A DNA stretch of 64,000 nt from an uncultured Candidatus Saccharibacteria bacterium (GCA_964419675.1 CAYQPN010000003.1:11985-75984), one strand, 5' to 3'. Numbered from the stretch's first letter, positions 36,516 to 44,335 are shown. Program-made: numbers and translations. The notes: generated from the sequence alone by a model not told the origin.

Positions 36516-36944
36516 CTATCTTCGGTTGTGACGGCGTTTTAGGCCTGCGACTTGAAGCCTTACAGATGAACGGTCAACAAGGCTTTGTGCATGCGCTAGA
36601 GAGACTTCGTCTTTGGCCTCTGCCTTCAGCTTCTGGGCTAGCTCGTAAGCTTTTTGGGCCCCTGCTTCGCTAATTTCGTCTGCATGATCTGCCTCATCAA
36701 CTAACACCGTTAACTTGTTATCTGCTACCTCAATAACTCCGCCGTTTATAGCAAAATAATCTATCATGTCGTCTTTATCTGTAGGTTTTCTGCGAATTCC
36801 TACTACGCCGTGCGTAGCTACACTAATTAACGGCATATGCCCTGGCAAAACGCCAATTTGTCCGTCAAGGGTAGGCAAGAGCACTTCGTATACGTCTTCA
36901 CTAAACTTAACCCCTCCCAAGCTGACAAGTTCAAACAGTATCAT
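36516..36944 (-). CDS. atpC: ATP synthase F1 subunit epsilon
   Basis: 142 aa. VPGHMPLI-type motif (LPGHMPLISV) and a C-terminal helical hairpin. Last gene of the operon. Confidence 0.92.
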   Translation of the reverse strand: MILFELVSLGGVKFSEDVYEVLLPTLDGQIGVLPGHMPLISVATHGVVGIRRKPTDKDDMIDYFAINGGVIEVADNKLTVLVDEADHADEISEAGAQKAYELAQKLKAEAKDEVSLAHAQSLVDRSSVRLQVAGLKRRHNRR

Positions 36945-37408
36945 TAGATGCTACCCGGGGTAACACCACGAAAAGTTGCTAAATATTCAGCGGGTGCTCC
37001 AGTGACTATTGAACCTGTGTGATGCGGGTATACTGGACTAGTATTAGGGTTATCAACAGAATGTAGTATCACGCCGCCCATCTGCGTTCTTGTAGCTGTG
37101 TAATCATCACCATTCACTGTTACAATTTTAGGTTCAGTTGTGTCAGCATCTACTAAGCGACCTTCGCCGGGTTGAGGGGTTTCTTCAGACCCTACAATAT
37201 ACCCCCCTAATGCACCGACCGGGACGAAGAAATACTTACCGCTAGCTCTTACCTCACGATCTTTCTCCCTAGCTTCTCGTGCTTTTTCTCTTCTTGATAC
37301 CGCACCATGCCTTAAAACAAATCTTAGAAAGGGCGAAAGTGGTGCTCCACCAAGACTACAATCTAGGGGTTCATTATCATCCAGGAATCCATTATCCGCT
37401 TCAACCAT
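36944..37408 (-). CDS. Unknown ORF (154 aa) inserted between atpD and atpC
   Basis: The start overlaps the atpD stop (TAATG, 37406-37410) and the stop overlaps the atpC start (TAATG, 36942-36946). No motif recognised. Confidence 0.55.
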   Translation of the reverse strand: MVEADNGFLDDNEPLDCSLGGAPLSPFLRFVLRHGAVSRREKAREAREKDREVRASGKYFFVPVGALGGYIVGSEETPQPGEGRLVDADTTEPKIVTVNGDDYTATRTQMGGVILHSVDNPNTSPVYPHHTGSIVTGAPAEYLATFRGVTPGSI

Positions 37409-38805
37409 TATTTTTTCTCCACAACTACTTCGTCTATGCCACCCTTCATATAGAAGGCTGATTCATTCTTATCGTCGTGCTTACCTCCCAAGATCTCTTG
37501 GAATCCGGCAATTGTATCGGCAAGCGAAACATATTTACCTTGGGCTCCGGTAAAAACTTCTGCAACGTGGAAGGGTTGTGTTAAGAATCTCTGAATTTTA
37601 CGGGCTCTTGAAACTGTCTGTTTGTCTTCGTCAGACAACTCTTCCATTCCCAAAATTGCTATAATGTCCTGCAAATCTTTGTAGCGCTGTAAAATTCTCT
37701 GAACTTCACGAGCAACTTGGTAGTGTTCGTCACCAACTATTTCTGGGTCTAGAATTGTAGAACTTGAGTCTAGTGGGTCAACAGCAGGATATAAACCTTG
37801 CTCAGTTAGCGCACGGTTCAAAACTATTGTTGAGTCTAGATGGGCAAAAGTTGTTGCAGGAGCTGGGTCGGTCAAGTCGTCAGCTGGGACATATACAGCC
37901 TGCACAGACGTAATTGACCCTTTCCTAGTCGAAGTAATACGTTCTTGAAGCTGACCCATCTCTTGAGCCAAGTTTGGCTGGTAGCCCACAGCAGATGGAA
38001 GACGACCAAGTAGGGCTGAAACCTCAGCACCGGCTTGAGTGAAACGGAAGATGTTATCAACAAACAATAATACATCGTTACCTTTATCTCTAAAACCTTC
38101 CGCCATTGTTAGCCCCGAAAGTCCAACACGCAAACGCGCACCTGGCGGTTCGTTCATTTGACCGAACACTAGGGAAGTCTTATCTAACACTCCAGATTCC
38201 GCCATCTCGTTATATAAATCGTTTCCTTCACGAGTACGTTCACCAACTCCGGCAAAGACAGAGAACCCACTGTGGAATTTTGCAATGTTGTTGATTAGCT
38301 CTGTAATAAGCACCGTTTTACCTACACCAGCACCACCGAATAAACCGACCTTACCGCCTTTTGTAATAGGGCAGATTAAGTCAATAACCTTAATTCCTGT
38401 TTCAAGAATTTCAACACTTCCAGATTGGTCGATTAGGGCAGGGGGTGCGCGGTGAATTACTGAATGTTCTTTAAAAGTTCCAGCCTTGCCATCAATCGGC
38501 TCACCGATAACGTTAAACATACGGCCAAGTGTTTCTTCGCCAACCGGCACGCTAATTGCTGAACCAGTATCTTTAACATCTGCTCCGCGTGACAGACCGT
38601 CAGTTGTACCTAATGAAATCGCGCGCACGCTTGATTCACTCAAGTGCTGGGCTACTTCTAGAATAATTTTTTGTTCGCCGATGTTGACCTCTAGCGCATT
38701 GTAGATAGCTGGCAGGTGTCCCTCGCTAAAGTCTACATCCACCACTACACCAACTACTTGACTAACTTTTCCTACTGTTGTCATTGTTTTTTCTGCTGTC
38801 GCCAT
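37408..38805 (-). CDS. atpD: ATP synthase F1 subunit beta
   Basis: 465 aa. GGAGVGKT Walker [18 protein letters not shown]. Confidence 0.98.
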
Positions 38806-38981
38806 TATACTTCTCCTTCTATTGTTGCTGTTATTGGTGGTAGTGTTAGTCCGTATGCCTCTTGATCGAGTAACTGTTGGTTTCTAGTCGGTATTAAACC
38901 TATTGCAAGTGCTTTTTCCATCGACATACCTTCCTGGGAGGGTCGCCGAGGGAAATCTGGAGTGCAGTCTATATATTCCAT
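38805..38981 (-). CDS. Unknown small ORF (58 aa) immediately upstream of atpD
   Basis: Below the ORF-track cutoff; translated by hand as [63 protein letters not shown] overlaps at both ends (38979-38983 and 38803-38807). The atpD Shine-Dalgarno (GAAGGAG) lies in its 3' end. Confidence 0.45.
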
Positions 38982-39175
38982 TATTCTATAGCCTCACCTG
39001 TAGTAGCTTGTGTTGGAGGAAGTTCAGGTACCGTGTCTTTTGCCGGATCAATAACTGCGTGGTACATTGCGTCGCGTGCTGCAAGGTCTACGAGTCCTGC
39101 TGCCATCGATGGTGAGTGTGGTCTAATACGCCTAGGCAGTTCTTCACCTACATATTTTCCATTTATTTCGTTCAT
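38981..39175 (-). CDS. Unknown small ORF (64 aa) immediately downstream of atpG
   Basis: ATGA overlap with the atpG stop (39172-39175). Weak similarity to the 58-aa ORF (PRR near the N-terminus; LPPTQATTGEAIE versus [12 protein letters not shown] at the C-terminus). Confidence 0.5.
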   Translation of the reverse strand: MNEINGKYVGEELPRRIRPHSPSMAAGLVDLAARDAMYHAVIDPAKDTVPELPPTQATTGEAIE

Positions 39176-42886: not shown

Positions 42887-42908
42887 GTATATATCCTTTG
42901 AATGATCG

Positions 42909-43145
42909 TTATTTAATAATGAATAGAGACGCAAATACTAATAGTGCCATCAACTCTACGATAGCCACAAACACAAGAATCTGACCCAAGAACTTAGCTG
43001 ATTCAGGGTTTCTACCAACTGAATTCATGAAGGCCATACCAATCAAACCAATACCAATTCCGGGCCCTAACATACCAAGGCCAAGCATAAGACCCTTACC
43101 GACGATTTCTACGTTTCCTGTTAATTCTGCTAATATGTTGAACAT
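42909..43145 (-). CDS. atpE: ATP synthase Fo subunit c
   Basis: 78 aa. GPGIGIGLIG glycine motif and the conserved carboxylate in AIVELMAL. Confidence 0.93.
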   Translation of the reverse strand: MFNILAELTGNVEIVGKGLMLGLGMLGPGIGIGLIGMAFMNSVGRNPESAKFLGQILVFVAIVELMALLVFASLFIIK

Positions 43146-43197
43146 TTTCTCCTACTTTCGTTTAATAATTAATTACTTTAATTTTCTAAAGGACCAT

Positions 43198-44019
43198 CTA
43201 CATTTTCATCTCCGTTGCTATCGTCTCAAGCTCATCTGACTCGTCGTGCCCATGATGGACAGCTAGAGACAAATAAGTGACAGATAACATCACAAAAATA
43301 TAGGCTTGAAGAAGTGCTACTCCTAGTTCTAGGAATAGGAAAGGGAAAGATGTAATCGGTGCAGCAGATTTACCCAAATATGAAAAAACCGAAATAATAA
43401 TTTCACCGATAGCAACGTTTAAAAATAGCCTCAGCGCTAGACTAAATACTCTGACAAGTTCGTTAAAAACCTCATAAATACCAATTACGTAAGTTAACGG
43501 GTTCCATAGCTTGCCAGCAAAGTAGTGGCGCATATGCTTAATAGGGCCAGATTCTTGCACAGCGAAATACTGAATCATAATCATTGAAACTAGTGCTGCT
43601 GCGAAAGTTCCATTCAAGTCTGCTGTGAAGGCCCGAAACACCGGGGTACCGTTATGAGTTAAAGCTTCGCCAACTCCTGGCAGTAAACCTAAAATGTTGC
43701 TAAACGCAATAAGAAAGAATATTGAAACAAAGTATGGGCCATATTTAAGGGCTTTTTTACGGTCGCCTAGACTATTTTCAAGTAGATTAACTATAAAATC
43801 TGTCCCAATCTCAACCAACTGAGTAAAGCCGCCCTTCGGTTTTATTGTCATCTTCTTACTAATGTAGATAAAAAGAATAAGCAAAAGGGCAAAACTAACC
43901 CAGGCGTAGACCATAGAATTAGTAATTTCAAAACCCATGAATTCAAACAAACCACCTGGAGCAATATGCACTGTTGGGCCGGCATCTGTGGCCGCAAATC
44001 TGATCAAACTATTTAACAC
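43198..44019 (-). CDS. atpB: ATP synthase Fo subunit a
   Basis: 273 aa polytopic protein. LALRLFLNVAIGE contains the essential Arg. Confidence 0.93.
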   Translation of the reverse strand: MLNSLIRFAATDAGPTVHIAPGGLFEFMGFEITNSMVYAWVSFALLLILFIYISKKMTIKPKGGFTQLVEIGTDFIVNLLENSLGDRKKALKYGPYFVSIFFLIAFSNILGLLPGVGEALTHNGTPVFRAFTADLNGTFAAALVSMIMIQYFAVQESGPIKHMRHYFAGKLWNPLTYVIGIYEVFNELVRVFSLALRLFLNVAIGEIIISVFSYLGKSAAPITSFPFLFLELGVALLQAYIFVMLSVTYLSLAVHHGHDESDELETIATEMKM

Positions 44020-44335
44020 TACTTATCTCCTTTTTATCTGCTTCTTTTTGCTCTTTGCTGACTTGCTTAATGGTGTTCCAGACTATAGAGGCCGCTCCAC
44101 CGGCTGCAATGACTAGTGCTGCAAGTGTATAGGAAGGGGAACTATCAAAATGGTTATCAAGTCCTGCCCCTATGAAGACCGGTATTAATACTGCTCCGGC
44201 TAGTTGCCAACCCATATTCATTGATGAGATCAAGAACTGGCGCTTTGGGTTAAAAACTTCTAGTGCTTTTTGCACCACGTCAGTGTTATCTGTCACCCCA
44301 CCGTCGGGGGAGACTATTTTTGTCGTTTTTCCCAT
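44009..44335 (-). CDS. AtpI/AtpZ-like small membrane protein, first gene of the atp operon
   Basis: 108 aa with two TM segments. Position and size match AtpI/AtpZ. 11-nt overlap with atpB. Confidence 0.65.
   Translation of the reverse strand: MGKTTKIVSPDGGVTDNTDVVQKALEVFNPKRQFLISSMNMGWQLAGAVLIPVFIGAGLDNHFDSSPSYTLAALVIAAGGAASIVWNTIKQVSKEQKEADKKEISSVK

Follow-up and report, generated by a model that had tools for sequence, protein, structure and literature searches.

Small acidic orphan open reading frames recur between the F1 genes of the ATP synthase operon in Saccharimonadales

The stretch considered here, a window of 64,000 nucleotides (nt) from an uncultured Candidatus Saccharibacteria bacterium (GCA_964419675.1 CAYQPN010000003.1:11985-75984), carries on its minus strand, at positions 36516-44335, a complete F1Fo ATP synthase operon in the order atpI-B-E-F-H-A-G-D-C, as given by the list of open reading frames (ORFs) and by Pfam. 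Four additional ORFs, orf108, orf64, orf58 and orf154, are located on the same strand as the F1 genes and fill the alpha/gamma (A/G), gamma/beta (G/D) and beta/epsilon (D/C) junctions exactly (Table 1). The source was placed in the Saccharimonadales (Saccharibacteria, Patescibacteria/candidate phyla radiation, CPR) by the 80 best genomic matches to the gamma subunit of the window, nearly all of which are titled Saccharimonadales, with identities of 48-83%. The four can be classed as lineage-specific ORFs that are embedded in an operon and translationally coupled.

The operon order, the four ORFs, all their coordinates and the seven exact junction overlaps, of 1, 4 or 8 nt, which an earlier note on this DNA had described, were reproduced from the ORF list and the sequence. 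ATGA overlaps connect atpA with orf108 (40354-40357) and atpG with orf64 (39172-39175), the TAA of orf108 lies inside the start of atpG (ATGGCTAA at 40031-40038), and TAATG overlaps are found at 38979-38983, 38803-38807, 37406-37410 and 36942-36946, orf58 and orf154 having a TAATG at each end. The coupling of atpF and atpH described in the same place was confirmed as well, the start of atpH sharing 1 nt with the stop of atpF at 42353. Shine-Dalgarno (SD)-like motifs stand 7-10 nt before all four ATGs and inside the preceding gene, namely AGGA for orf108 (8 nt), GGAGG for orf64 (7 nt), GAGG for orf58 and GGAG for orf154 (8 nt), and the SD of atpD is provided by the last codons of orf58 (GAA GGA GAA). 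A read-out of the sequence upstream of atpC gave no SD core, so that translation of this gene is probably started through its TAATG overlap with orf154. Location on the same strand, stop/start overlap and an SD within the upstream gene, which together characterize translationally coupled cistrons, are thus found for all four ORFs, the products of which are acidic (isoelectric point, pI, 4.25-5.16) and devoid of transmembrane (TM)-like segments.

Table 1. The ATP synthase genes of the window and the ORFs inserted between them.
Feature	Position	Strand	Basis
atpI-like small membrane protein, first gene of the operon	44009..44335	-	PF09527 ATPase_gene1, E=1e-8
atpB, Fo subunit a	43198..44019	-	PF00119, profile positions 1-217 of 217
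atpE, Fo subunit c	42909..43145	-	PF00137
atpF, subunit b	42353..42934	-	PF00430
atpH, delta, 134 amino acids (aa)	41949..42353	-	PF00213, OSCP profile positions 65-171 of 172
atpA, alpha, 530 aa	40354..41946	-	PF00006 + PF00306, PF00306 ending at residue 504
orf108, acidic orphan, pI 4.5, alpha/gamma junction	40031..40357	-	ORF list and sequence
atpG, gamma	39172..40038	-	PF00231, profile positions 4-285 of 285
orf64, acidic orphan, pI 5.0, first of two in the gamma/beta junction	38981..39175	-	ORF list, codon score
orf58, acidic orphan, pI 4.25, second in the gamma/beta junction	38805..38981	-	ORF list and sequence
atpD, beta	37408..38805	-	PF02874, PF00006, PF22919
orf154, acidic orphan, pI 5.2, beta/epsilon junction	36944..37408	-	ORF list and sequence
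atpC, epsilon, both domains	36516..36944	-	PF02823 + PF00401

Judged by their sequence, the four ORFs look like genuine protein-coding genes. When the gaps were shuffled with preservation of their composition, an at least 95% open same-strand frame arose in 40 of 20000 shuffles for the A/G and in 7 of 20000 for the D/C junction, which bears out the previous claim that the ORFs exceed chance. With a codon table trained on the Pfam-supported genes of the window and all six frames compared, the annotated frame scores highest for orf108, orf64 and orf154, and orf58, the least certain of the four ORFs, has a codon score of 0.08 that is tied with one antisense frame. A 70-aa antisense ORF inside the G/D junction (38903-39115, plus strand) is spurious, with a codon score of -0.64 in its own frame. 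The arrangement is also present in two assemblies of independent origin, Logan SRR7369911 (100% identity) and ENA ERZ3430527 (99.9%), and a protein collection's own gene caller delivered exactly these four proteins, each as a singleton cluster at 90% identity. Overlaps, SD-like motifs, codon usage with the tie for orf58, and the specificity for the F1 half described below are in line with the earlier proposal that the ORFs are built for co-translation with the F1 subunits.

Homologues of the four ORFs were sought on several levels. None of them gave a match in Pfam or NCBIfam at E<=1, atp-subunit domains included, in PHROGs or PADLOC, or by tblastn in 80 related species loci, and all remained singletons when clustered by blastp with the ORFs that occupy the same junctions, here called slot ORFs, in 80 metagenome loci. 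Searched against 5.8 billion proteins, and exhaustively with phmmer against 1.84 billion representatives, orf154 retrieved only itself, the second phmmer match being a seven-fold repeat protein with an inflated score; orf108 equally found only itself among the 5.8 billion. For these two products no meaningful sequence match was obtained in the PDB, the match of orf108 to HDAC7 (E = 0.018) being at chance level, and single-sequence AlphaFold2 models are unconfident, with a predicted local distance difference test (pLDDT) value of 37 for orf154 and 44 for orf108. Known accessory or inhibitor families (ATPase_gene1/AtpI, ATP11, ATP12, IF1, zeta/DUF1476) were matched neither by the four ORFs at E<=1 nor by 131 slot ORFs of related loci at E<=1e-3. 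Since there is no match to an atp domain and the flanking subunits are full length, an origin as split or duplicated atp fragments is ruled out, and the negative Pfam and NCBIfam profile searches agree here with what had been assumed before. The window ORFs match none of the slot-family profiles that were built (DC, AG, GD1-3) and join no cluster. Likenesses noticed by eye, of 'GFLDDNEPLD' in orf154 to the 'YTP..NLND' motif of a D/C family and of 'GNGIRVG' in orf108 to A/G ORFs, are unsupported, with best Smith-Waterman z values of 2.6-3.0 and E-values above 0.8 with iterative and motif-only hidden Markov models (HMMs).

A conserved accessory subunit would be expected to have recognizable orthologues in most relatives which possess the enzyme, and such orthologues were not found for the four ORFs. 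The extra stator or regulatory subunits which the earlier note had considered as candidate roles are not supported, as no homologue exists in 160 related loci, as occupancy is patchy and as orf154 and orf108 have no counterpart among the 5.8 billion proteins. That note had also proposed comparing related atp operons for the presence of the ORFs and for purifying selection: the same junctions turned out to be ORF-filled in many relatives, the window ORFs themselves being conserved in none of the 160 loci, and the nonsynonymous divergence (dN) is below a nearly saturated synonymous divergence (dS) in homologous slot ORFs of other genomes, the window ORFs having no homologue with which to be compared.

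What recurs in relatives is the position. In 80 species-level related loci, which carry labels of the form L0xx (e.g. L015 or L068), the atp genes were located and every junction was measured, junctions of at least 150 nt being counted as expanded. Junction lengths are bimodal, of about 0-20 nt or of 150-1750 nt. Expanded are 30 of 75 A/G, 48 of 76 G/D and 36 of 70 D/C junctions, in contrast to none of 29 I/B, one of 62 B/E, six of 56 E/F, two of 57 F/H and one of 66 H/A junctions, which amounts to 40-63% of the F1 versus 0-11% of the Fo/stalk junctions across the 80 species; F/H and H/A are spared though they are overlapped as tightly as the F1 junctions. A single same-strand open frame covers at least 80% of the junction in 89 of the 113 expanded F1 junctions (on the opposite strand in 15), and most of the remaining ones contain two or three ORFs. 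Where slot ORFs are chained, 148 of 248 junctions are overlaps of -1, -4 or -8 and 66 of 248 measure 0-15 nt. The -8 overlap recurs at the gamma start because the conserved gamma N-terminus (ATGGCTAA, Met-Ala-Asn) holds an out-of-frame TAA, and many A/G ORFs therefore end in ...NG.

Clustering of gamma and beta sequences sets a basal group of 13 genomes, expanded in 2 of 13 A/G, 1 of 13 G/D and 0 of 13 D/C junctions, apart from the remaining clade, which includes the window and is expanded in 23 of 51 A/G, 41 of 56 G/D and 34 of 55 D/C junctions. In this expanded clade at least one slot is filled in 44 of 50 genomes and all three, as in the window, in 14; six of the 50 are without any insert, and even close relatives differ in which slots are occupied. 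Both the bimodality and the open frames are seen again in 80 metagenome contigs that were sampled independently, starting from basal gamma sequences, including lineages with 46-52% identity to the window gamma, and the most distant contigs (38-42% gamma identity) have compact junctions. Altogether, about 100 other genomes show the pattern. With respect to other loci, the ORF map of the 64-kb window contains no other chain of small overlapping ORFs, most of the small ORFs not having been family-scanned; the window holds no other multi-subunit operon, and the +/-6 kb flanks of the relatives contain too few conserved gene pairs to serve as a control.

An extreme case is L068, with ORF-filled expansions nearly everywhere, the Fo/stalk half included: E/F 285 nt, F/H 267, H/A 213, A/G 711, G/D 483 and D/C 776, the last consisting of three ORFs. 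Beyond the operon end, 21 related loci have a conserved gene family between atpC and the MIP-channel gene, and the gap between atpC and this gene, with a median of 445 nt and at least 150 nt in 17 of 21 loci, may represent a further variable slot, the fourth. In the window, 160 apparently non-coding nt (36356-36515) separate atpC from the MIP gene (35711-36355).

Slot ORFs, single ORFs of 40-300 aa, have the signatures of genes. An SD core (GGAG, GAGG or AGGA at -18 to -4) precedes 111 of 128 slot ORFs as compared with 6% of internal ATGs, a frequency which equals or exceeds that of the atp genes, and 117 of the 128 start with ATG. At codon position 1 the frequency of G is 0.40, versus 0.38 in atp genes, and the open frame is the best scoring one in 123 of 131 slot ORFs. 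Their GC content tracks that of the atp genes of the host (r = 0.6), with the value at third codon positions (GC3) about 0.09 lower. For the homologous pairs that were examined, slot-ORF dN is 2-8x the gamma dN of the same genome pair. In the closest pairs, an A/G pair of L055 and L056 (dN 0.18, dS 1.7) and a pair of L016 and L017 (dN 0.24, dS 2.1), dN stays well under dS; slot ORFs of other genomes have a dN/dS of about 0.1, with dS near saturation. As a rough estimate, the closest homologous slot-ORF pairs thus appear to be under purifying selection. The products share physical properties as well: pI is below 5 in 100 of 128 slot ORFs versus 13 of 71 window genes, 31 of 128 are on the disordered side of the charge-hydropathy plot versus 1 of 69 window genes, and a TM-like segment is present in only 4 of 128. 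We conclude that slot ORFs are in all likelihood translated and moderately constrained genes and not random spacers, anatomy and composition being what bears directly on the ORFs of the window.

Occupants of the slots belong to small families only. All-against-all BLAST and iterative HMMs gave a D/C family of seven members, an A/G family of four and several G/D families of two to five, and with the metagenome ORFs added, 196 ORFs fell into 147 singletons and 20 clusters, 19 of which are restricted to a single slot. A short N-terminal motif, Y-T-P..N-L-N-D, is retained by the D/C family in genomes whose gamma subunits are 52-78% identical to that of the window. A metagenome scan with the GD3 family found no relatives. 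Turnover is fast, as among genome pairs with a gamma+beta distance below 0.15 and the same slot occupied only 1 of 11 has detectably homologous occupants, while some pairs at a distance of 0.25-0.30 are homologous (z = 7-12); a family may turn up in scattered parts of the clade, whereas close relatives differ in their occupants. In the G/D slot, L016 has three ORFs, L017 two of those and L015 only a diverged copy of the last, with the relay intact. A frameshift origin of unrelated occupants was considered and rejected, as five family HMMs run over all expanded junctions in six frames gave no cryptic remnants; an origin by duplication or from elsewhere in the locus was likewise discarded, since tblastn of the slot ORFs against all loci, with +/-6 kb flanks, and against the window found none outside the slots once boundary artefacts had been set aside. 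The turnover may be due to recombination across the atp flanks, to repeated in-situ origin or to very uneven divergence.

Any Pfam family is matched by just 3 of 131 slot ORFs, all of them by PF05635 (23S rRNA intervening-sequence protein/Avd-like), with E down to 2.9e-35. These inserts, in the A/G junction of L031 (1315-1524) and the D/C junction of L032 (3963-4337) and L076 (3617-4009), occupy two different slots and have, unlike other slot ORFs, non-overlapping junctions (17-51 nt). No window ORF matches PF05635. Among the 131 slot ORFs PHROGs matched only the Avd-like inserts, and PADLOC gave one marginal match (SspC, E = 2.5e-4). Around the window inserts (36400-40500) there are no flanking direct or inverted repeats and no transposase or integrase domain, attC-type sites not having been specifically modelled.

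Considering anatomy, coding signatures, orphan status, clade-wide recurrence, slot specificity and turnover, the inserts are in our view best described, with a fair amount of doubt retained, as occupants of three hypervariable slots, alpha/gamma, gamma/beta and beta/epsilon, which hold translationally relayed small acidic proteins and not conserved subunits. The whole operon would be transcribed as one mRNA. As the SD of each insert is located in the 3' end of the preceding gene, with its start overlapping the preceding stop and its stop overlapping the next start, ribosomes that terminate on an F1 gene would reinitiate on the insert and, after terminating there, on the F1 gene which follows. 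Selection would then maintain an unbroken relay of reading frames, since the F1 genes downstream would lose their coupling if a stop or a stretch without translation intervened, while the protein sequences, moderately constrained, would over the time scale of species be lost, deleted as whole ORFs or replaced. Most likely the products are passengers or modulators for which the F1 half of the operon serves as a platform for expression, and they are presumably dispensable, because many relatives are without inserts.

Several points weigh against this description. Translation is deduced from sequence signals, and selection on the window ORFs, which have no homologue, is extrapolated from positional analogues elsewhere; dS is saturated in almost all pairs, which makes dN/dS only a rough measure. 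Of the four, orf154 and orf108 are those covered by the search of 5.8 billion proteins. A pure passenger model explains neither the strong confinement to the F1 half nor the acidity common to the products, and these could hint at an F1-related function.

An F1-related function is the core of the alternative that comes closest, an outside but serious possibility, in which the inserts are fast-evolving F1-directed proteins, be it assembly chaperones, inhibitors/modulators or protectors, made beside their partners and binding via short motifs. The near confinement of expansions to the three F1 junctions, the slot specificity of the clusters, the motif conserved in the D/C family, the purifying selection apparent in the closest homologous pairs, the common acidity and solubility of the products and junctions built for co-translation with F1 would all fit such proteins. 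However, no known accessory or inhibitor family of ATP synthase is matched, the window ORFs are outside all families and clusters with unconfident AlphaFold2 models, and occupancy is patchy: six of the 50 expanded-clade genomes and almost all basal genomes do without inserts, and the occupants in close relatives are unrelated. As a variant that appears unlikely, the slots could constitute a dedicated clade-wide cassette system, in which small acidic proteins are swapped by recombination across the atp flanks and kept diverse by acting on F1, possibly as regulators of ATP hydrolysis versus synthesis or as decoys which protect F1 from inhibitors of the host or of competitors.

That the inserts are spacer DNA without a protein function, the open frame merely relaying ribosomes and perhaps tuning a 3:1:3:1 output of alpha, gamma, beta and epsilon, seems to us quite improbable. 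Exact junctions, with every ORF handing over to the next gene, whole-ORF deletions that keep the relay intact, the missing sequence conservation across most genomes, a GC3 below that of atp genes and the poor predicted structure would all be consistent with a spacer. However, avoidance of stops alone produces neither a G frequency of 0.40 at codon position 1 nor the best open-frame scores in 123 of 131 cases, the closest pairs have a dN well under dS, several families with conserved motifs persist across deep divergences, and the strong acidic bias implies selection at the product level, if only for harmlessness.

We regard it as highly improbable that the inserts are cargo of mobile or selfish elements (cassettes, homing genes, miniature transposons or phage-derived morons) which target stop/start overlaps: presence/absence of whole ORFs, unrelated occupants in close relatives and the apparently mobile PF05635 family in two slots (L031, L032, L076) are what such elements might leave, but the window inserts have no terminal repeats, 128 of 131 slot ORFs are without a PHROG or Pfam match and one has a marginal PADLOC match, GC tracks the host, and families other than PF05635 never change slot. 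Moreover, the equally overlapping F/H and H/A junctions are spared, and the PF05635 inserts themselves have non-overlapping junctions. An artefact, that is chance ORFs, an assembly error, split or pseudogenized atp genes or a wrong genetic code, as which the short orf58 with its tied codon score and the antisense ORF opposite might be taken, is effectively refuted by shuffle probabilities of 2e-3 and 3.5e-4 for two gaps alone, by independent assemblies with an identical arrangement, by full-length atp subunits, by the negative score of the antisense ORF and by the other genomes that have the pattern.

Parallels to the slot ORFs exist in part. Accessory genes of atp operons such as atpI/UncI and, in N-ATPase operons, AtpR/AtpQ are conserved membrane-protein families whose genes stand 5' in the operon or among those for Fo. 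Like the slot ORFs, they are small, non-catalytic and expressed as part of an F-type ATPase operon, and the window has such a gene (PF09527), whereas slot ORFs encode soluble, acidic proteins which are mutually unrelated across species, are located between F1 genes and match none of these families. Inhibitors of F1, such as IF1, alphaproteobacterial zeta, cyanobacterial AtpTheta and the C-terminal domain of epsilon, are small, partly disordered proteins that are conserved within their lineage, and their genes as a rule do not lie at F1 junctions. Theirs is the kind of role which had been proposed for the window ORFs, but slot ORFs match none of them in sequence and lack conservation even among closely related species.

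Translational coupling by stop/start overlap is known from the atp and ribosomal-protein operons of Escherichia coli. The same ATGA and TAATG overlaps with an SD in the upstream gene are used in the window, the atpF/atpH pair included; instead of joining subunit genes directly, however, the coupling in the window is relayed through one to three orphan ORFs. Hypervariable loci framed by conserved genes comprise capsule and O-antigen loci, flexible genomic islets, phage morons and free-standing homing genes, and with those the slots have in common a fixed position with conserved flanks, unrelated occupants in close relatives and the same family in distant ones. In contrast to those loci, the slots are situated inside the operon of an essential enzyme, are exactly coupled and have no recombinase, nuclease, repeat or phage signature. 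The PF05635 genes are also inserts in atp junctions, but of a recognizable family, in more than one slot and with non-overlapping ends.

The operons of F-type ATP synthases are among the most conserved bacterial gene arrangements. To our knowledge no genes have been described between F1 genes, and text searches of the literature returned no description of genes between atpA, atpG, atpD and atpC, in Saccharibacteria or elsewhere, so that clade-wide ORF-filled F1 junctions are apparently undescribed so far. In a large clade of Saccharibacteria, translated-looking orphans recur at three F1 junctions, with the relay kept while the occupants turn over fast. Many Saccharibacteria do not respire and may run the ATP synthase in reverse. 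Saccharibacteria are reported to undergo natural transformation. Should the products touch F1, they would regulate energy conversion in these ultra-small epibionts at a level that has so far escaped notice, and a cassette system, if real, would add a hypervariable accessory layer to one of the most conserved enzymes. Should they not touch F1, the slots would be a natural system to study the tolerance of new or foreign small genes in an essential coupled operon and would reveal to what extent the evolution of operons is limited by translational coupling. Either way, the locus, inside one of the most conserved operons, is open to experiment, and in annotation slot ORFs should be treated neither as spurious hypothetical ORFs nor as subunits.

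Concerning the canonical genes, Pfam profiles are covered essentially end to end with the exception of delta, the subunits alpha, beta, gamma, epsilon, a and c being complete in this sense. In delta, roughly 60 positions at the beginning of the OSCP profile have no counterpart, and its length of 134 aa is close to the median of 132.5 aa in 66 relatives; alpha extends past PF00306 by a 26-residue Lys/Glu-rich tail (40354-40431), and tails are likewise present in relatives. The short delta and the alpha tail, which the earlier note had taken as a possible indication of a remodelled F1/stalk region, are thus real, but as they are general in 60-80 relatives they are not by themselves signs of a remodelling linked to the inserts. 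From these sequences, the contact between peripheral stalk and alpha may be unusual across the whole lineage, independently of the inserts. For atpF, the listed TTG start entails a 26-nt overlap with atpE, while the alternative ATG at 42886 (Met17) leaves a gap of 22 nt; as the E/F gap has a median of 20.5 nt in relatives, the ATG is probably the real start. A candidate promoter for the operon, at 44372-44343, is a consensus match only; the operon has no excess of promoter-like or terminator-like sites and contains no Rfam family.

At the upstream end of the operon, a 286-aa ORF without a Pfam match (44172-45032, plus strand) overlaps atpI in antisense by 164 nt, and its start, if the ORF is real, probably lies further downstream. 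According to a 2026 preprint (10.64898/2026.03.03.709456), a pilus (pam) operon and a tail-fibre-like gene co-localize with ATP-synthase genes across the CPR. Adjoining the operon in the window, at 34196-35629 on the plus strand, is a gene whose 477-aa product has a hydrophobic segment at the N-terminus and comprises FecR, fibronectin-III and bacterial Ig-like domains. Elsewhere in the window, a ribosomal protein L10 leader is located at 61-284 on the plus strand (Rfam RF00557, 48.3 bits versus a threshold of 44 bits), and two tRNA genes are found on the minus strand at 25159-25230 and 60803-60884.

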